Sequence record: NC_028780.1
Source of the DNA: Escherichia phage slur07
Strand: one strand, 5' to 3'
Length of the DNA stretch: 64,000 bases
Shown: positions 9,394 through 58,285 of the stretch, piece after piece
How positions within the stretch are numbered: position 1 is the stretch's first letter
How the letters are laid out: each line of letters opens with the position of its first letter
Position numbers and translations under genes: made by a program
Notes under the pieces: model-generated
What the model was told of the DNA's origin: nothing
Databases searched by the model: none
The model's input: the letters and a program-made list of their open reading frames with translations, nothing else

Positions 9394-10973
9394 TCTTTTA
9401 CCTTAATTATGTAGTTTAAAGAAATGTTCCATGGACGTGTTTCATTTCCAATTAATTCAGGGCGATTTAACGTATATTTGGAATTTCGCTGCGATGCCGG
9501 GTCAATTTCATATCCATCATTGGTGAAGTATGAACGGTTATCCCAGTCAAGTCCTTTACGTGTACCAACAAAATTTGATCTACGGGTATTACCGAATGCC
9601 CCAGAATCATCATGCTCACCAAATCCACCAGCATGTTTATGATAAGACATCTGCTGTTTCTGTACTTCACCAACATATCCACCAGTACAACCTACACCTA
9701 ATCTAGGTTTACCAAATTGGTCATTACCATTAACATTTGGATTTGTTAAGTGAGAGCCACGACCAGAGCCACGAACAAAAAGACCACGCATGTCAGGCAA
9801 TCCAGGATTTGATGAGCTTCCGCCATATCTTGTTCCAATTCTAGAAGCATATAATGGACAATCTGACGCTGAAACAGTTCCACCGTGGCAAAAACGCCAA
9901 GCATCACTAGGAAGACTATCAGCGGCCCACATCATAATAGCTCCGACAGGAATAGTTCTATCAATTTCATTTTGTGTTACGACACGCTTACCTTGAATAT
10001 AACCACCGGTCATGTTAACTGTTCCGGTAATATTTGCTCCACCTGAAGCTATTGTAAGCGTGTTATTAATGCGAAGTGTTCCATTGATAGTTTGACCGCC
10101 TCTTTGGTGGATAACGTCAGCATTCCAAGCTAAGGCTGATGAAGCATCTCCTCCACTCTGTGAACCGGCCGTTGTTGTTAATCTAACTACGCCTCTCATT
10201 GACGTTGTAGAACCACGACCATTAAGAGTTGCGCCAGTAACCGCAACAGAAGCATTATTCGAGTTAACTTCTGATTGTGTTCCTAATTTAATTACGCCTT
10301 TATATTCTTCAGTAGCAGATGAATTCATAAACGTATAAGGAGAAATTGCATAGCCTTCTCTCAAAGTTCCCTGACGAACCTGCGCTACTGTTGCTAATTG
10401 AACAACACCTTGGTCCGATTCAGTAGCTGTGGTTTCAGAAGGAGCAATTTGCGCAATTAATTTAATAGCTAACTGCTGTGTTTTTAATGGAGTCATTGCA
10501 GTAGTATCATCTGCACCAGCTAATGCTTGCGGTAGAGATGAAATTTTAATAACACCATTCGAGGATTCAGTTGAAACTCGTGTTTCAAACGCATTATTAA
10601 GAGCAACAGTAAATTTAGCTGGAGTTATAGAAGATTCATTATTAACTCCGGCAATGGCTTCATCATTGGTTGAATATCTTGTTAATCCGTAAACAGTTTC
10701 AGTTGCGTTTGGATATGATAATCTTGTTGCCAACGTTGCTGGTGTAACTGCTTTGGTATTATTAGTTCCATCTATAACTTCCTGTTCAGTGGCAAGAAAT
10801 AAAATTCCCTTTGTTGTTGACGATGCATCAGGAACTCCATTTACGCCAGCAGGAGAAATGGCTGCTATAGCAGCCTGAACATCAGTAATCTCTGGTGGAA
10901 AATTCGTATCGGTAGGATCAAATTTTACATAACGAGATTCATTAGAAACGTGTTGATATGTATTATTACTCAT
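9390..10973 (-). CDS. 12: short tail fibre protein gp12
   Basis: 527 aa, T4 gp12 length; start [20 protein letters not shown]; ATGA overlap with wac. Confidence 0.92.
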
Positions 10974-28842: not shown

Positions 28843-28915
28843 TGGGAATTAGCCAAGTTGGTAAGGCACTGGATTTTGATTCCAGGATGCAAAGGTTCGA
28901 GTCCTTTATTCCCAG
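28843..28915 (+). tRNA. tRNA-Gln (anticodon UUG)
   Basis: Cloverleaf by eye: acceptor TGGGAAT/ATTCCCA, anticodon stem CTGGA/TCCAG with loop TTTTGAT, T-arm AGGTTCGAGTCCT. Confidence 0.75.
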
Positions 28916-28916
28916 C

Positions 28917-29003
28917 GCGAGAATGGTCAAATTGGTAAAGGCACAGCACTTAAAATGCTGCGGAATGATTTCCTTGTGGGTTCGAGTCCCACTTCTCGCA
29001 CCA
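28917..29003 (+). tRNA. tRNA-Leu (anticodon UAA), CCA encoded
   Basis: Acceptor GCGAGAA/TTCTCGC, anticodon loop CTTAAAA, long variable arm, T-arm GGGTTCGAGTCCC, 3' ACCA. Confidence 0.75.
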
Positions 29004-29008
29004 AATTT

Positions 29009-29082
<74 letters not shown>

Positions 29083-29128
29083 ATTTATGACTCGTCGTGA
29101 GACGCTCAGTTCTTTATTAGGGACTGAT

Positions 29129-29737
29129 ATGCATTTTTATCTTTATAAAATAACAAATAAAATTAATAATAAAATTTATATTGGTGTGCATTCTACCGAA
29201 AATTTAGATGATGGATATATGGGTTCTGGTAAATTATTAAAAAGAGCCCAAGATAAATATTGTATAGAAAATTTTTCTAAAGAAATATTAGAGTATTTTG
29301 ACGATAAAGAATCTATGCTTGAAGCCGAGAAAAATATTGTCACAGAAGAGTTTTTAAATAGACCAGATGTGTATAATTTAAAACTTGGAGGTGAAGGTGG
29401 ATGGGATCATATAAATAATTATCCTATGACAGATCAGCAACGCGAATTAATTTCATTGGGTGTTAAAAAGGCACATTCTAACGGAAAATTAAAAGGATGG
29501 TCTTCAAATGGATTAATGAAGAATGGCTTTGCTGGTAAAACTCATTCTCAAGAAGCTAAACGTAAAATAGCAAAAGCAAACGAAGCAAAAGTTTCTGCGG
29601 ATGAAAGAAAAAGAAGAATAGAAATTTCTAAATTATATGATTTTTCTAAACGTGGCGAATTGTCTAAATATGCTAAGCATATTGGCGTAAGTCATACTCA
29701 AGCAAAAAGAATTCTAAATCAAATTAACAATATATAA
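29129..29737 (+). CDS. segB: GIY-YIG homing endonuclease, SegB-like
   Basis: 202 aa from ATG 29129 (MHFYLYKITNKINNKIYIGVHST...GYMGSGKLL); GIY-YIG motifs; sits inside the tRNA cluster as T4 segB does. Confidence 0.8.
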   Translation: MHFYLYKITNKINNKIYIGVHSTENLDDGYMGSGKLLKRAQDKYCIENFSKEILEYFDDKESMLEAEKNIVTEEFLNRPDVYNLKLGGEGGWDHINNYPMTDQQRELISLGVKKAHSNGKLKGWSSNGLMKNGFAGKTHSQEAKRKIAKANEAKVSADERKRRIEISKLYDFSKRGELSKYAKHIGVSHTQAKRILNQINNI

Positions 29738-29740
29738 ATA
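29733..29740 (+). promoter_or_regulatory. TATAAATA motif immediately upstream of tRNA-Ser
   Basis: Exact late-promoter octamer at the segB 3' end, 4 nt before tRNA-Ser; could be chance in AT-rich DNA. Confidence 0.3.
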
Positions 29741-29743
29741 TTT

Positions 29744-29833
29744 GGAGGCGTGGCAGAGTGGTTTAATGCACCGGTCTTGAAAACCGGCAGTCGCTCCGGC
29801 GACTCATAGGTTCAAATCCTATCGCCTCCGCCA
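29744..29833 (+). tRNA. tRNA-Ser (anticodon UGA)
   Basis: Acceptor GGAGGCG/CGCCTCC, anticodon loop CTTGAAA, long variable arm, T-arm AGGTTCAAATCCT, 3' GCCA. Confidence 0.75.
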
Positions 29834-29839
29834 GTTTTT

Positions 29840-29915
29840 GCTGATTTAGCTCAGTAGGTAGAGCACCTCACTTGTAATGAGGACGTCGGCGGTTCGATTC
29901 CGTCAATCAGCACCA
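29840..29915 (+). tRNA. tRNA-Thr (anticodon UGU)
   Basis: Acceptor GCTGATT/AATCAGC, anticodon loop CTTGTAA, T-arm GGTTCGATTCC, 3' ACCA. Confidence 0.75.
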
Positions 29916-29916
29916 A

Positions 29917-29991
29917 GGCCCTGTAGCTGGAAGGTTCAAGCAAGCGACTCATAATCGCCAGATGGTGGTTCAATTCCACCCAGGGCCACCA
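29917..29991 (+). tRNA. tRNA with CAU anticodon (Ile2-type as in T4, or Met)
   Basis: Acceptor GGCCCTG/CAGGGCC, anticodon loop CTCATAA, T-arm GGTGGTTCAATTCCACC, 3' ACCA; D-arm pairing imperfect. Confidence 0.65.
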
Positions 29992-30003
29992 AATTATGAA
30001 TTA

Positions 30004-30090
30004 GGGGAGTTATCCCGTAGAGGTAGCGGTGTGGACTGTAAATTCATTGTCATTGCGACTCGGGTGGTTCGACTCCACCACTCCCCACCA
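30004..30090 (+). tRNA. tRNA-Tyr (anticodon GUA), class II with long variable arm
   Basis: Perfect 7-bp acceptor GGGGAGT/ACTCCCC, anticodon loop CTGTAAA, variable arm TGTCATTGCGACTCG, T-arm GGTGGTTCGACTCCACC, 3' ACCA; D stem and anticodon stem contain GU or mismatches. Confidence 0.6.
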
Positions 30091-30094
30091 ATTT

Positions 30095-30169
30095 GGATGT
30101 GTAGCTCAATGGCAGAGCGATCGCCTGTTAAGCGATTGGTTATAGGTTCGAATCCTATCACGTCCGCCA
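30095..30169 (+). tRNA. tRNA-Asn (anticodon GUU)
   Basis: Acceptor GGATGTG/CACGTCC, D-arm GCTCAATGGCAGAGC, anticodon stem ATCGC/GCGAT with loop CTGTTAA, T-arm ATAGGTTCGAATCCTAT, 3' GCCA. Confidence 0.7.
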
Positions 30170-30173
30170 AATA

Positions 30174-30249
30174 CGAGGCATAGCTCAGAAGGAAGAGCAA
30201 GGACCTTCTAAGTCCTGGGTCGTAGGTTCGATCCCTACTGCCTCGACCA
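30174..30249 (+). tRNA. tRNA-Arg (anticodon UCU)
   Basis: Acceptor CGAGGCA/TGCCTCG, D-arm GCTCAGAAGGAAGAGC, anticodon stem AGGAC/GTCCT with loop CTTCTAA, T-arm GTAGGTTCGATCCCTAC, 3' ACCA. Confidence 0.75.
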
Positions 30250-30560
30250 GACAAGAAGCCGGGTCGCTACCGGCAAGTCGTCGGACTGATGTTCCCTGTT
30301 TAAGGACTGGCATTAATAAATCTTTATGTTTTGTTAATGCCCCCTTATATCACAGCAGAAACGGCGCACCGAATTATCGATTCGAGGAAATATCTTTGCC
30401 ATAAGCCGAGTAGCGTTTTTGACGGAACGTTCGGATATGGTCGAGATATGGCCTTTTAAAAATATTGAGTAGCGTCAACTACTTAATAACCGGGTTCGAA
30501 TCCCGGCGTTTCGTACAAACACTTGCCTTAGCAGGTGGAACCCCGACAAGGTTGCCGCAA
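30250..30560 (+). ncRNA. candidate stable small RNA(s) with tRNA-like T-arm (compare T4 species 1/2 RNAs)
   Basis: 310-nt non-coding stretch after tRNA-Arg with several hairpins (GCCGG..CCGGC at 30258-30274; GGCATTAA..TTAATGCC at 30309-30341) and a T-arm-like CCGGGTTCGAATCCCGG at 30490-30506; ends at terminator 30566-30593. Confidence 0.3.
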
Positions 30561-30565
30561 GGCTT

Positions 30566-30593
30566 AGCCCCGACCGAAAGGTTGGGGCTTTTT
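30566..30593 (+). terminator. rho-independent terminator at the end of the tRNA/stable-RNA cluster
   Basis: AGCCCCGACC-GAAA-GGTTGGGGCT + TTTT. Confidence 0.65.
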
Positions 30594-30595
30594 AG

Positions 30596-30603
30596 TATAA
30601 ATA
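30596..30603 (+). promoter_or_regulatory. T4-type late promoter for CTS internal-protein gene
   Basis: Exact TATAAATA 41 nt upstream of ATG 30644; late expression fits a capsid-packaged protein. Confidence 0.5.
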
Positions 30604-36866: not shown

Positions 36867-37406
36867 ATGAGAACATTTTTAACTGGTCCTTATCTATCCC
36901 TGATGAATGCTTTTACACACCATTCTGATGCTAGAGTAGAAGAAATTTGTAAAAACGATTATATCCCACCATTTGAAGACTTACTCAAGCAGTATTGCAC
37001 ACTTCGATTAGATGGTGGCAGACAATCCGGTAAATCAACTGCTGTGACTAACTTTGCTGCTAATTGGCTGTATGATGGTGGAACAGTTATTGTTCTTTCT
37101 AATACTTCAGCTTACGCTAAAATTTCTGCGGGCCACATTAAAAAAGAATTTTCTCGTTATTCTAGCGATGATATTCGATTCCGCTTATTTACCGATTCTG
37201 TCCGTAGTTTTATCGGTAATAAAGGAAGCAAGTTCAGAGGTTTATCGCTTTCGCGGATTTTGTATATAATCGATGAGCCTGTTAAATCTCCTGATATGGA
37301 TAAAATTTACGATATTCATATTGAAACTGTGCACCACTGTTGCAATAGTAAATGCTGCATTGGTGGTATTACTCGTCCACAGTTTTTCATAATCGGAATA
37401 CAATGA
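36867..37406 (+). CDS. small P-loop NTPase
   Basis: 179 aa from ATG 36867 with SD GAGAG; Walker A GGRQSGKST, Walker B-like ILYIIDEP. Confidence 0.55.
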   Translation: MRTFLTGPYLSLMNAFTHHSDARVEEICKNDYIPPFEDLLKQYCTLRLDGGRQSGKSTAVTNFAANWLYDGGTVIVLSNTSAYAKISAGHIKKEFSRYSSDDIRFRLFTDSVRSFIGNKGSKFRGLSLSRILYIIDEPVKSPDMDKIYDIHIETVHHCCNSKCCIGGITRPQFFIIGIQ

Positions 37407-37732
37407 TGACAGACACACAGCTTTTCGAATATCTTTATTTTTCGCCAAAAACTATTAAAAATAAATTGGTGAATCATTTTGAAATTTTGGCAAATAATAA
37501 CGTCTTGAGCGAATTTTATCCTAAGCAATACAAATTACAAAAAGGCGTATTCAAAGGATGCAGAGTTTTGTGCACTGCTCCTAATGCAAGATTAATGAAT
37601 AAAATTCCATATTTTACCATGGAATTTATTGATGGACCTTTTAAAGGACTAATCACCCAAAGTTTAATGGCATATGATTCTGAGCCATTTTTAATTAAAG
37701 AACAATCTTGGATAAATTTATTTTCTAATTGA
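37403..37732 (+). CDS. hypothetical protein
   Basis: 109 aa from ATG 37403, overlapping previous stop. Confidence 0.5.
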   Translation: MMTDTQLFEYLYFSPKTIKNKLVNHFEILANNNVLSEFYPKQYKLQKGVFKGCRVLCTAPNARLMNKIPYFTMEFIDGPFKGLITQSLMAYDSEPFLIKEQSWINLFSN

Positions 37733-37738
37733 GGTTAT

Positions 37739-38101
37739 ATGAAAGCATATCAAATTCTTGAAGGCACACATAAAGGTACTATTTATTTTGAAGATGGTAT
37801 TCAAGCACGAATTATTGTTTCTAAAACCTTTAAAGAGGACTCTTTTGTAGACCCAGAAATTTTCTACGGTTTGCATGCCCGTGAAATTGAAATTGAGCCA
37901 CAACCTACAGTTAAAATTGAAGGTGGTCAACACCTGAACGTTAACGTTTTGCGTCGTGAAACTCTGGAAGATGCAGTTAAGCATCCGGAAAAATATCCGC
38001 AGCTGACCATCCGTGTATCCGGTTATGCAGTTCGCTTTAACTCTCTGACTCCGGAACAGCAGCGCGACGTTATCGCTCGTACCTTCACCGAGAGTTTGTA
38101 A
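37739..38101 (+). CDS. autonomous glycyl-radical cofactor (GrcA/YfiD-like)
   Basis: 120 aa; C-terminal ~57 aa ([57 protein letters not shown]) matches the glycyl-radical domain of E. coli GrcA/PFL including the RVSGY glycine-radical motif. Confidence 0.85.
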
Positions 38102-38322
38102 TGGCAAAGATAATTATTGAAGGTTCTAAAGATGTGCTAAATGCTTTCGCCGAGTGGTTTAGTAATTCAGGCGAACAGCAATTTAATGAAGCGTGGACCA
38201 TGGGTGATATTGATGGAATTTATCCTACGACAGAAATTTCTGTTCAAGGATATGGCATTCATGAACCCATTCGTTTAGTTGAATATGATTTATGTACTGG
38301 TGAGGAAGTCAAATATGATTGA
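38101..38322 (+). CDS. hypothetical small protein
   Basis: 73 aa, TAATG overlap with previous gene. Confidence 0.5.
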   Translation: MAKIIIEGSKDVLNAFAEWFSNSGEQQFNEAWTMGDIDGIYPTTEISVQGYGIHEPIRLVEYDLCTGEEVKYD

Positions 38323-54559: not shown

Positions 54560-54880
54560 ATGACTATTGAAAATAAATTAGATGTTGATGCAGTTCTGAG
54601 CGAAATCATTGAAGACCATGATGCATTTTCGGAAAACTATGATTTCGATTTTTCCGATTATCTTAAACCTGTCGAAATAGAAGACTGGGTGCAAGATGGT
54701 AAATGTCAATATCGTCAGTGTGTTTACTTTAGTCCAAAACATAATGTACATGTGGCTGTAAATGAATCTCGGTCAGGTTCTTATCATTCTGACTGGTATT
54801 ATGCAGTTCCGACTGTTGAACTAGTCGAGCCCCATGAACGTGTAGTAACTCAGACAGTACGAGAATGGATTACGCTATAA
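54560..54880 (+). CDS. hypothetical protein
   Basis: 106 aa ORF. Confidence 0.5.
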   Translation: MTIENKLDVDAVLSEIIEDHDAFSENYDFDFSDYLKPVEIEDWVQDGKCQYRQCVYFSPKHNVHVAVNESRSGSYHSDWYYAVPTVELVEPHERVVTQTVREWITL

Positions 54881-55003
54881 AACCTTGGTGGGCGGCTAGA
54901 TGGGAAACTGTAGAGCCAGAGCCGGAAGAACCGGTTTACACTGATGAAGAAACGGTGTATAATGAACCTACAATAAATGACATAATTGATATGGAGATGG
55001 GAC

Positions 55004-55530: not shown

Positions 55531-56004
55531 ATGTTATTGACTGGCAAATTATACAAAGAAGAAAAACAGAAATTTTATGATGCACAAAACGGTAAATGCT
55601 TAATTTGCCAACGAGAACTAAATCCTGATGTTCAAGCTAATCATCTTGATCATGACCATGAATTAAATGGACCAAAAGCAGGAAAGGTACGTGGATTGCT
55701 TTGTAATCTCTGCAATGCCGCAGAAGGTCAAATGAAACATAAATTTAATCGCTCTGGTTTAAAGGGACAAGGCGTTGATTATCTTGAATGGTTAGAAAAT
55801 TTACTTACTTATTTAAAATCCGATTACACCCAAAATAATATTCACCCTAACTTTGTTGGAGATAAATCAAAGGAATTTTCTCGTTTAGGAAAAGAGGAAA
55901 TGATGGCCGAGATGCTTCAAAGAGGATTTGAATATAATGAATCTGACACCAAAACACAGTTAATAGCTTCATTTAAGAAGCAGCTTAGAAAGAGTTTAAA
56001 ATGA
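55531..56004 (+). CDS. 49: endonuclease VII (Holliday-junction resolvase)
   Basis: 157 aa MLLTGKLYKEEKQKFYDAQNGKCLICQRELN...; matches T4 gp49; RBS-sequestering hairpin upstream. Confidence 0.93.
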   Translation: MLLTGKLYKEEKQKFYDAQNGKCLICQRELNPDVQANHLDHDHELNGPKAGKVRGLLCNLCNAAEGQMKHKFNRSGLKGQGVDYLEWLENLLTYLKSDYTQNNIHPNFVGDKSKEFSRLGKEEMMAEMLQRGFEYNESDTKTQLIASFKKQLRKSLK

Positions 56005-57818
56005 CAATTGAAAAAGAAATTGAAGGATTGATTCATAAAACTAATAAAGACCTTTTAAACGAGAATGCTAATAAAGATTCTCGTGTTTTTCCAACTCAAC
56101 GGGACCTTATGGCTGGTATTGTGTCTAAACACATTGCCAAAAATATGGTCCCGTCTTTTATTATGAAAGCGCATGAAAGCGGAATTATCCATTTCCACGA
56201 TATTGATTATTCCCCTGCTCTTCCATTTACTAATTGCTGTTTAGTAGATTTAAAAGGAATGCTTGAAAACGGATTTAAGCTAGGTAATGCACAGATTGAA
56301 ACTCCTAAATCAATTGGCGTTGCTACTGCAATTATGGCACAAATTACTGCACAGGTTGCTTCTCACCAATACGGCGGAACGACTTTTGCGAATGTAGATA
56401 AAGTACTTTCTCCTTATGTTAAACGCACCTATGCAAAACATATTGAGGATGCAGAAAAATGGCAAATCGCCGATGCGTTGAATTATGCTCAATCTAAAAC
56501 AGAAAAAGACGTATACGATGCATTCCAAGCTTATGAATATGAAGTAAATACTCTCTTTAGTTCAAACGGACAGACTCCTTTTGTAACAATTACATTTGGT
56601 ACGGGAACTGACTGGACTGAACGAATGATTCAGAAAGCAATTCTGAAAAATCGTATTAAAGGTCTTGGTCGTGATGGGATAACTCCTATTTTCCCTAAGC
56701 TTGTTATGTTCGTTGAAGAAGGTGTTAATCTTTATAAAGACGATCCGAACTATGATATTAAGCAGCTTGCTCTAGAGTGCGCAAGCAAAAGGATGTATCC
56801 TGATATTATTTCAGCTAAGAACAATAAAGCTATCACTGGTTCATCTGTTCCTGTTTCTCCAATGGGTTGCCGTAGTTTCTTGAGCGTATGGAAAGATTCG
56901 ACTGGTAATGAAATTCTTGATGGACGTAATAATCTTGGTGTTGTAACATTGAATCTTCCTCGCATCGCGTTAGATTCTTATATTGGAACACAGTTCAATG
57001 AACAGAAATTTGTTGAATTGTTCAATGAACGAATGGATTTGTGTTTTGAAGCTTTGATGTGTAGAATTAGTTCCTTAAAAGGAGTTAAAGCGACTGTTGC
57101 TCCTATTCTTTACCAAGAAGGTGCATTCGGGGTTCGTCTTAAACCTGATGACGACATAATTGAGTTATTTAAAAACGGTAGAAGTTCAGTGTCTTTAGGA
57201 TACATTGGTATTCACGAATTGAATATTCTTGTCGGTCGTGATATTGGACGAGAAATTTTAACTAAAATGAATGCTCATCTTAAACAGTGGACTGAAAGAA
57301 CCGGATTTGCTTTTAGTTTATATTCGACTCCTGCTGAAAACCTTTGTTATCGCTTCTGTAAACTCGATACAGAAAAATATGGAAGCGTAAAAGATGTTAC
57401 CGATAAAGGTTGGTACACTAACAGTTTCCATGTTTCAGTAGAAGAAAATATTACTCCGTTTGAAAAGATTTCCCGTGAAGCGCCATATCATTTCATTGCG
57501 ACAGGTGGTCACATTTCTTATGTTGAACTTCCTGATATGAAAAATAACTTAAAAGGTCTTGAGGCCGTGTGGGATTATGCTGCACAACATTTAGATTATT
57601 TTGGTGTTAATATGCCAGTAGATAAATGTTTTACATGCGGAAGTACCCATGAAATGACTCCTACTGAAAACGGATTTGTTTGTTCTATTTGTGGAGAAAC
57701 TGATCCTAAAAAGATGAATACCATAAGAAGAACATGTGGTTATTTGGGAAATCCGAACGAACGCGGATTTAATCTCGGTAAAAATAAAGAAATCATGCAT
57801 AGGGTTAAACACCAATGA
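56001..57818 (+). CDS. nrdD: anaerobic ribonucleoside-triphosphate reductase NrdD (uninterrupted)
   Basis: 605 aa continuous ORF; C-terminal glycyl-radical motif RRTCGYLG; Cys cluster CFTCGSTHEMTPTENGFVCSICG; ATGA overlap with 49. Confidence 0.92.
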   Translation: MTIEKEIEGLIHKTNKDLLNENANKDSRVFPTQRDLMAGIVSKHIAKNMVPSFIMKAHESGIIHFHDIDYSPALPFTNCCLVDLKGMLENGFKLGNAQIETPKSIGVATAIMAQITAQVASHQYGGTTFANVDKVLSPYVKRTYAKHIEDAEKWQIADALNYAQSKTEKDVYDAFQAYEYEVNTLFSSNGQTPFVTITFGTGTDWTERMIQKAILKNRIKGLGRDGITPIFPKLVMFVEEGVNLYKDDPNYDIKQLALECASKRMYPDIISAKNNKAITGSSVPVSPMGCRSFLSVWKDSTGNEILDGRNNLGVVTLNLPRIALDSYIGTQFNEQKFVELFNERMDLCFEALMCRISSLKGVKATVAPILYQEGAFGVRLKPDDDIIELFKNGRSSVSLGYIGIHELNILVGRDIGREILTKMNAHLKQWTERTGFAFSLYSTPAENLCYRFCKLDTEKYGSVKDVTDKGWYTNSFHVSVEENITPFEKISREAPYHFIATGGHISYVELPDMKNNLKGLEAVWDYAAQHLDYFGVNMPVDKCFTCGSTHEMTPTENGFVCSICGETDPKKMNTIRRTCGYLGNPNERGFNLGKNKEIMHRVKHQ

Positions 57819-58285
57819 ATTATGATAGATTTTATCCTTGCGATTTTGTTAATGGCCCTGGTTGCAGGGTTGTTCTTTTCGTTACAGGTTGTTTGCATAA
57901 ATGCGAAGGGTGTTATAATAAATCAACATGGAATGCTAGAAATGGTATTCCATTTACTGGTGAAACACTAGAACAATTGATTGAATGTTTGAATAATGAT
58001 TATATAGAAGGATTAACTATAACCGGAGGTGACCCTCTTTATCCTGATAACAGAGACGTGATTCACTCTGTGGTTCAAACAGTAAAAAATCTTTATCCCA
58101 ATAAAAGCATTTGGTTGTGGACAGGATATAAGTTTGAAGATATTAAACAACTAGAAATGCTTAAATATGTTGATGTTATTATTGATGGGAAGTATGAGAA
58201 AAATCTTCCGACTAAAAAGCTGTGGCGAGGATCAGATAATCAGCGACTTTGGTCAAATACCGATGGGGTGTGGAAACATGATTAA
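57815..58285 (+). CDS. nrdG: anaerobic ribonucleotide reductase activating protein NrdG (radical SAM)
   Basis: 156 aa; Cys motif near the N-terminus (CLHKCEGCYN); ATGA overlap with nrdD. Confidence 0.9.
   Translation: MNYDRFYPCDFVNGPGCRVVLFVTGCLHKCEGCYNKSTWNARNGIPFTGETLEQLIECLNNDYIEGLTITGGDPLYPDNRDVIHSVVQTVKNLYPNKSIWLWTGYKFEDIKQLEMLKYVDVIIDGKYEKNLPTKKLWRGSDNQRLWSNTDGVWKHD

Follow-up and report, generated by a model that had tools for sequence, protein, structure and literature searches.

The window analysed here is the whole 64,000-nucleotide (nt) stretch of Escherichia phage slur07 (NC_028780.1), and the gene in question is vs.6, an open reading frame (ORF) for a stand-alone glycyl-radical cofactor of the GrcA/YfiD type (Table 1). 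The first-pass annotation, made from the letters of this DNA, had proposed a GrcA-like glycyl-radical gene at this place, and the protein bears this out: it matches the Pfam family Gly_radical (PF01228; E 2.8e-18, 66.8 bits against a cut-off of 22.2), and its residues 61-120 are identical to residues 68-127 of E. coli GrcA, the RVSGYAVRF motif included. The protein also matches E. coli GrcA in the PDB (6OWR, E 8.6e-42), and its C-terminal 60 residues are ~78% identical to the C-terminus of PflB. The PHROG group of T4 vs.6, phrog_1209, matches residues 1-120 (E 1.2e-62), which places the gene in that orthologue group, and slur07 and T4 differ in one of the 120 residues (R73 in slur07, H in T4). 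The predicted radical residue, Gly95, aligns with Gly102 of GrcA, at an offset of seven residues, and with Gly734 of pyruvate formate-lyase (PFL), the radical site of that enzyme (PMC8683613). The DNA that encodes nearly the entire structured glycyl-radical domain is, base for base, almost that of E. coli grcA, and we consider it highly probable that vs.6 is an old phage homologue of grcA, orthologous to T4 vs.6, in which the segment for the structured domain was overwritten by E. coli grcA via homologous recombination.

Table 1. Features of vs.6 and of other genes named in the text, with positions in the window (aa, amino acids; GC3, GC content at third codon positions).
Feature	Position	Strand	Evidence or remarks
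vs.6 ORF, 120 aa and stop codon; stand-alone GrcA/YfiD-type glycyl-radical cofactor	37739..38101	+	Orthologue of T4 vs.6 / Y06I
5' half of vs.6, phage-type	37739..37916	+	GC 0.34, GC3 0.19; no E. coli nucleotide match
Host-identical patch, 168/169 nt as in E. coli grcA nt 200-368	37917..38085	+	blastn, alignment; GC 0.49
GGT codon, Gly95 in RVSGYAV, predicted glycyl-radical site	38021..38023	+	Direct sequence; GrcA/PflB alignments
3' terminal 16 nt of vs.6, including the stop codon	38086..38101	+	Five synonymous differences from E. coli
vs.7 homologue, directly upstream of vs.6	37403..37732	+	phrog_2049 covers residues 18-126 of ORF 37352-37732; T4/RB69 gene order
vs.5 homologue, 73 aa	38101..38322	+	PHROG phrog_1986, E 2.8e-43; same place as T4/RB69 vs.5
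nrdD (56001-57818) and nrdG (57815-58285), anaerobic ribonucleotide reductase and activase	56001..58285	+	Pfam NRDD, E 2.1e-171; Fer4_12, Radical_SAM

Positions 37917-38101 are 96.8% identical to the 3' end of E. coli grcA (blastn, E 2e-80), and the match is present in 5426 of 5426 complete E. coli genomes; the low identity to the host gene that the first-pass annotation had named as fatal to its proposal is thus not what the alignment gives. In the same genomes positions 37739-37916 gave no nucleotide match by blastn. The lone mismatch within the patch, at 37949, is synonymous (CTG to TTG), and the differences in the last six codons lie at 38086, 38089, 38092, 38095 and 38096. The host-like stretch had been placed at about 37870 with a length of ~230 nt; it starts ~47 nt later, at 37917, and is ~185 nt long, the interval 37870-37916 being of phage type in the alignment. 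The compositional step and the host-preferred codons that had been noticed in the 3' part were confirmed. The 5' 177 nt have a GC content of 0.33-0.34 and a GC3 of 0.18-0.19, which is typical of slur07 (window mean GC 0.353; GC3 of phage ORFs 0.244 on average and 0.315 at most), and the 3' part has a GC content of 0.49 and a GC3 of 0.44-0.46. Within the patch four of five leucines are encoded by CTG and three of three prolines by CCG, and it ranks in the top 0.8% of 168-nt windows by GC content and, by fit to the codon usage of the phage, in the lowest 0.8% of 55-codon windows. By megablast against the 5426 genomes, the rest of the 64-kb window has no match to E. coli chromosomes; the only matches of the 64 kb are the vs.6 patch and a 93-nt tRNA-Tyr-like stretch found on plasmids.

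Identity of this kind might in principle arise without any transfer, by selection or convergence acting through amino-acid constraint, codon optimisation for high expression or RNA structure, given that the protein of the domain is extremely conserved and that host grcA uses preferred codons. Our host comparison set, which comprised grcA of 80 species of Enterobacterales and Pasteurellales, speaks strongly against it. Citrobacter amalonaticus grcA encodes the identical C-terminal 60 residues, yet over the last 183 nt its identity to E. coli is just 92.9%, i.e. ~7% of the bases differ (synonymous divergence, dS, of the core 0.43), and Salmonella grcA, with two residue changes, is 84.2% identical, a difference of ~16% (core dS 1.15). 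Moreover, phages of other genera that encode nearly the same protein differ from their best-matching host at 16-37% of nucleotides, and what each phage clade matches is its own host species, not a shared optimum. We regard the chance that the identity arose in this way as negligible; the comparison with the 80 genes also disposes of amino-acid composition or codon convergence as the cause of the compositional shift, the second point on which the proposal of a host-derived module had been said to stand or fall.

Over grcA nt 202-369, identity to E. coli is 98.8% for slur07, 99.4% for T4, 98.8% for RB69 and 100% for two phages from IMG/VR, and the same phages are 87-88% identical to Klebsiella pneumoniae grcA. 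The dS between phage cores and E. coli grcA is 0-0.07, a range that includes the value for a genome of a cryptic Escherichia clade (0.048). Both grcA and pflB had been put forward as counterparts of the 3' part; the former holds, with 96.7% identity over the last 183 nt, and the latter does not, with 79.2% identity to E. coli pflB, so that pflB is rejected as the source. K. pneumoniae grcA reaches 86.3% over the last 183 nt. Given that pflB and the grcA genes of other hosts are much less similar and that the phage cores differ from E. coli so little at synonymous sites, these comparisons point to grcA of Escherichia specifically as the source of the patch.

Identity by itself has no direction, and the 3' half of E. 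coli grcA could in principle have come from a T-even phage. However, E. coli grcA is uniform and host-like over its full length, with a GC3 of 0.42 and 0.43 in its halves, and the halves are equally diverged from their counterparts in Escherichia sp. (identity 0.990 and 0.989) and in Salmonella (0.843 and 0.844); the bacterial gene is located between ung and eamB. The segment is atypical in GC content and codon usage for the phage only, and on this basis we conclude that the transfer went from host to phage and hold the opposite direction to be very improbable.

The sharp compositional step and the host-identical 3' part would also be expected if a host glycyl-radical module had been captured once and fused to an unrelated, phage-specific N-terminus, as the first-pass annotation had proposed. 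The host-derived 3' part of that proposal stands; the unrelated N-terminus does not. Aligned alone, the N-terminal halves of vs.6 and GrcA are identical at 14 of 39 positions (36%; BLASTP, E 1e-5, GrcA residues 28-66), and the NCBIfam GrcA profile TIGR04365 aligns with vs.6 over positions 25-126 of 126. The gene is reported from six of six T4-like genomes compared (PMC1524935). Full-length homologues occur in CC31-like, RB49/JSE-like, Slopekvirus, Pseudotevenvirus and T5-like phages and in giant-phage contigs of 345-357 kb, and in these the C-terminal coding regions are 63-84% identical to any host sequence compared and mostly less GC-rich than that of E. coli; it is therefore probable that the phage gene was complete in its ancestral form. 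Finally, the gene ends in ACT GAG AGT CTA TAA in the RB69 type and in ACA GAG AGT CTA TAA in Slopekvirus and Pseudotevenvirus, compared to ACT GAA AGC CTG TAA in E. coli. As the last 12-16 nt of RB69-type vs.6 resemble the ending found in other T4-like genera, the right junction of the host tract also seems to lie inside vs.6, and the left limit of the patch coincides with the start of the highly conserved stretch that encodes EGGQHLNV. A core nearly identical to the host is thus flanked on both sides, in the same ORF, by far more diverged DNA, and such an internal tract, enclosed by sequences that belong to the resident gene, is characteristic of homologous recombination or gene conversion. 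Because the N-terminal half is homologous to GrcA and the profile extends into it, vs.6 is best described as a full-length, old phage homologue of grcA with an internal replacement rather than as a fusion, and we judge a single-capture fusion to be unlikely. As an aside, the gene immediately downstream of vs.6 in the RB49-like phage JSE encodes a homing endonuclease (L168:831-1361 in our locus numbering), and genes of this kind promote local gene conversion between phages.

The two parts of the gene differ in age. We compared T4-like phages (slur07, T4 and the genomes L085-L087) with RB69-like phages (RB69, L088 and L089). Between the two groups the head of the gene differs at 18-19 of 177 nt (dS 0.40-0.48) and the core at 0-4 of 168 nt (dS 0-0.05), a contrast at synonymous sites that is significant in Fisher tests (p 0.002 to 1e-5). 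Two genomes from different genera, L086 and L089, each show 100% identity to E. coli throughout grcA nt 202-369. Taken together, the contrast and these two genomes argue that the core is much younger than the split between the T4-like and RB69-like phages or that it is being refreshed.

At 95% identity or higher, 637 phage records match E. coli grcA, and among the matches listed all but one start at nt 200. Several observations bear on how often the replacement has happened among E. coli phages. The right-hand end varies between close relatives: in phage OES_C-2 the gene is of host type through to the stop codon (one mismatch in 185 nt), T4 retains the host-type TTT ACT GAA, and in slur07 identity is lost from TTC onward. 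The most diverged E. coli-type patch seen is that of phage EcNP1 (L221:218-580), with ten synonymous differences in the core, one of which (GTA) also occurs in a genome of a cryptic Escherichia clade (L004); another Escherichia species may have been the donor of this patch. A further phage, L084, carries the CAA to CAG variant that marks the E. coli O157 allele. By itself none of these observations is strong, but in combination the variable right-hand ends and the EcNP1 and L084 variants favour several events over one.

The phages of Klebsiella provide a second case. In Jiaodavirus vs.6 the head has a GC content of 0.37 and the tail a GC content of 0.56 and a GC3 of 0.59, and for the cores identity is 95.2-97.6% to the grcA of K. 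pneumoniae and ~87% to that of E. coli; they carry both host-specific residues (LLDAVEH versus LEDAVKH). At 95-99% identity, 106 phage records match K. pneumoniae grcA, and another 28 do so at 90-95%; among the matches listed above 90% all are Klebsiella phages and the matches span nt 199/202 to 369/374. When E. coli phages are compared with K. pneumoniae grcA and vice versa, the cross-matches reach 85-89%, so that in reciprocal searches the E. coli phages and the Klebsiella phages each carry the version of their own host. The dS between T-even and Jiaodavirus cores, 0.59-0.62, equals that between the two host genes (0.60). These data point to the Jiaodavirus patch as an independent second replacement, from K. 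pneumoniae grcA. A Jiaodavirus-like contig of 167 kb (L109, IMG/VR 2974754850_000001) has the K. pneumoniae-type patch that is closest to the host, with 4 mismatches in 168 nt; its vs.6 frame appears to be interrupted in the 5' half, as the match extends over 359 nt and we could find no in-frame start codon.

Two phage contigs from human metagenomes, L104 (91 kb; IMG/VR 3300008607_000007) and L106 (152 kb; 3300007924_000003), carry, within the last 183 nt of their grcA homologue, ~70 nt that are nearly identical to Haemophilus parainfluenzae grcA. A segment of 23 codons has 1 third-position mismatch compared to 20 of 37 elsewhere (permutation p 0.004, for a pair picked from many), and sibling contigs lack the H. 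parainfluenzae-like segment. This is no more than suggestive of a third, partial host patch.

An alternative to repeated exchange with hosts is one host-to-phage replacement in a single T-even lineage, followed by spread from phage to phage and no continuing exchange with the host. Co-infecting T-even phages recombine readily, the left limit of the patch is the same in all T-even phages examined, and the differences in the core are mostly private singletons, all of which would fit such a history. Set against this, markers that distinguish the genera lie within ~6-12 nt of both edges of the patch (ACA versus AAA on the left, TTG versus CTA on the right), so that the exchanged tract would need to coincide almost exactly with the host-homologous segment. 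Likewise, right-hand ends that vary among close relatives, one of them of host type to the stop codon, are not expected from a single event, and neither are several phages of both genera that have 0 differences in 168 nt although their heads are separated by a dS of 0.48. The K. pneumoniae-type patch of Jiaodavirus would be left unexplained. We consider a single event with subsequent spread possible but rather improbable. We lean, if not strongly, towards a model in which grcA of the current host time and again overwrites the structured half of vs.6. This half would then constitute an ongoing record of recombination between host DNA and a phage that destroys the host chromosome, and a marker, at the nucleotide level, of the host genus (E. 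coli or Klebsiella type), and the spare part of the phage would be kept in exact match with PFL and the PFL-activating enzyme (PFL-AE) of the host.

Combining these data, we suggest the following scenario. T4-like phages would long have carried their own AT-rich grcA homologue, and in the T4-like/RB69-like lineage the segment 37917-38085 would have been overwritten when the gene underwent conversion with grcA of E. coli. On the left, the crossover would have occurred inside vs.6 at the start of the EGGQHLNV stretch, probably because the disordered N-terminal half is too diverged from the host for recombination, and the right one apparently ~16 nt ahead of the stop codon. Among E. coli phages the replacement would be very recent or repeated, and in Jiaodavirus the same replacement would have occurred independently from K. 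pneumoniae grcA. By analogy with GrcA/YfiD and the T4 protein, host PFL-AE would install the radical on Gly95 of vs.6, and the C-terminal, structured half would then stand in for the part of PFL that is lost to oxygen cleavage, so that PFL could be kept running through shifts in oxygen in the infected cell. The phage may bring its own spare part because T4 shuts off host gene expression.

Several points weigh against this scenario or limit its reach. Recombination is deduced from the pattern of identity, and no event has been observed directly. The sharing of the patch by T4-like and RB69-like phages could reflect one host event and exchange between phages, and the O157 variant in L084 is a single synonymous transition that could be shared by chance (rough estimate ~0.04). 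GAGAG at 38090-38094 may serve as a Shine-Dalgarno sequence for vs.5, but this role is made less likely by the GAAAG that T4 has there. Against TIGR04365, vs.6 scores 153.3 bits, under the equivalog cut-off of 170 (E. coli GrcA, 233.9), because its N-terminus is shorter and diverged; vs.6 thus fits the structural definition of the GrcA type, yet falls just outside the bacterial equivalog by the curated threshold. In addition, among sequenced phages no match to Salmonella and Enterobacter grcA exceeds 83.8% and 88.7%, respectively, and as these genes lack a near-identical phage counterpart the host patch is not general among enterobacterial phages. Lastly, the function of slur07 vs.6 is assigned by way of the T4 orthologue, as reported.

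For that orthologue, the ~14-kDa protein Y06I, activation by PFL-AE and restoration of oxygen-cleaved PFL are reported (Wagner et al. 2001, via PMC8683613), in agreement with the statement in the first-pass annotation that a YfiD-like protein of T4 repairs this enzyme; T4 vs.6 is annotated as an autonomous glycyl radical cofactor. YfiD receives its glycyl radical from PFL-AE and restores PFL that has been cleaved by oxygen at Gly734; its residues 1-60 are disordered and aid binding and activation, and its structured half, residues 61-127, duplicates PFL residues 693-759 (PMC8683613). The structured part of YfiD coincides with the host-identical patch of vs.6.

The window also contains genes for an anaerobic ribonucleotide reductase and its activase, and NrdD of slur07 carries a Gly_radical domain. 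The first-pass annotation had placed these genes in the same early region as vs.6; they are on the same strand, but lie 18 kb downstream and are not its neighbours. Class III ribonucleotide reductases use formate as their reductant, and PFL makes formate; an indirect link from vs.6 via PFL and formate to nrdD and nrdG of the phage is therefore plausible and agrees with the scenario above. A more direct connection would be that vs.6 is a spare part for NrdD of the phage and not for PFL of the host, an idea that gains from the presence of both genes in the window and from the role in nucleotide metabolism that has been suggested for vs.6 (PMC1524935). We find it quite unlikely, since the C-terminal 60 residues are those of GrcA and resemble PflB, the DNA appears to be copied from grcA, and the T4 protein is reported to rescue PFL together with PFL-AE (via PMC8683613).

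Comparison with related systems helps to place the slur07 gene. T4 vs.6 is the same gene in the same place with the same E. coli-identical patch, and apart from the one residue it differs from slur07 at few synonymous sites, among them those of the TTT ACT GAA that slur07 has not retained. E. coli GrcA shares the two-part architecture, with an identical C-terminal and a homologous N-terminal half, and activation by PFL-AE and docking into cleaved PFL presumably apply to vs.6 as well. Unlike GrcA, vs.6 is seven residues shorter, has an N-terminal half that is ~36% identical over 39 residues, and is phage-encoded and transcribed in the phage early-gene block. Jiaodavirus vs.6 (e.g. of vB_KpnM_17-11) agrees in gene, position, mosaic layout, left limit (grcA nt 199-202) and the lack of a host-like 3' end, but its patch is of the K. 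pneumoniae type with LLDAVEH for LEDAVKH, and the tract ends ~15 nt earlier. In the mosaic psbA genes of cyanophages, intragenic recombination has taken place between phage and host copies; as in vs.6, a metabolic gene of host origin in a lytic phage contains host-like patches in a gene of phage type. The gene, the host group and the phage family are different, and in vs.6 the patch corresponds to a single structural domain, with nearly 100% identity to a host species that can be named.

Both the vs.6 gene and its biochemical function are already known, and the value of the present data lies in the evolutionary pattern; the patch is a further example of a known process, the intragenic exchange between phage and host at a metabolic gene. 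Our literature search found no paper on a host-matched mosaic of vs.6; key older papers were outside its reach and a prior description is possible. T-even phages are a textbook case of genomes with essentially no DNA homology to the host, and these phages degrade the host chromosome early in infection. The vs.6 patch suggests that host DNA does enter T-even genomes by homologous recombination in nature, and vs.6 would be a place at which to measure the rate. On the practical side, the core may help to assign T4-like phages to a host genus, and it can mislead filters that remove host reads and flags for chimeric assemblies. A disordered half that evolves freely and a structured half that is copied from the host fit the roles reported for the halves of YfiD, and the vs.6 mosaics would provide natural chimeras for testing these roles. 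The exact match to the host protein could be selected, or it could be a neutral by-product of recombination at the sole stretch with enough homology.

The nearest database phages over vs.6 are Tequatrovirus isolates, with at most 99.4% identity. The gene lies between vs.7 and vs.5 in the interval from denV to regB, and the order e (34989), denV (35802), vs.8, vs.7, vs.6, vs.5, regB (38919), vs.1, vs, tk.4, tk (41682) is the same from e to tk as in T4 and RB69. As the ATG of vs.5 overlaps the stop codon of vs.6 (TAATG), vs.5 is probably translationally coupled to vs.6. In a scan for promoters and terminators around vs.6, sites were no commoner than in shuffled sequence. An ORF of 129 residues lies antisense to the entire gene (37718-38107, minus strand) and is taken to be a by-product of the coding strand.

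Elsewhere in the window, nine tRNA genes (Gln, Leu, Gly, Ser, Thr, Met-CAT, Tyr, Asn and Arg) are located at 28843-30249, and the tRNA cluster accounts for the GC-rich stretch 29724-30599. Within it the tRNA-Tyr region (30001-30093) is 89.4% identical to a tRNA-Tyr on E. coli plasmids, with matches at 219 plasmid places. Two further stretches with a GC content of at least 0.48, 9760-10264 and 54766-54958, have no E. coli match by megablast and are therefore not host patches of the vs.6 kind.

Some of the records used here are themselves mislabelled. Our K. pneumoniae grcA was taken from a chromosome that is listed as a plasmid in PLSDB, and this database holds other whole or partial chromosomes under the same label (L216, CP125156.1; L217; L218), for instance a 5.37-Mb K. 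pneumoniae sequence and E. coli sequences of 4.8-4.9 Mb, which is a trap for plasmid analyses. In K. aerogenes NCTC10006 (L218:200-600) grcA is annotated as a shortened 'pyruvate formate-lyase' coding sequence; a run of A (GAAAAAATACCC) has one A too many, which shifts the frame and is probably a sequencing error. At NCBI a vs.6-type protein of 118 residues (P0012) is labelled 'GrcA [Escherichia coli]' and is encoded on a contig of 167,969 bp, in all likelihood the genome of a T4-like phage that was included in a bacterial assembly.

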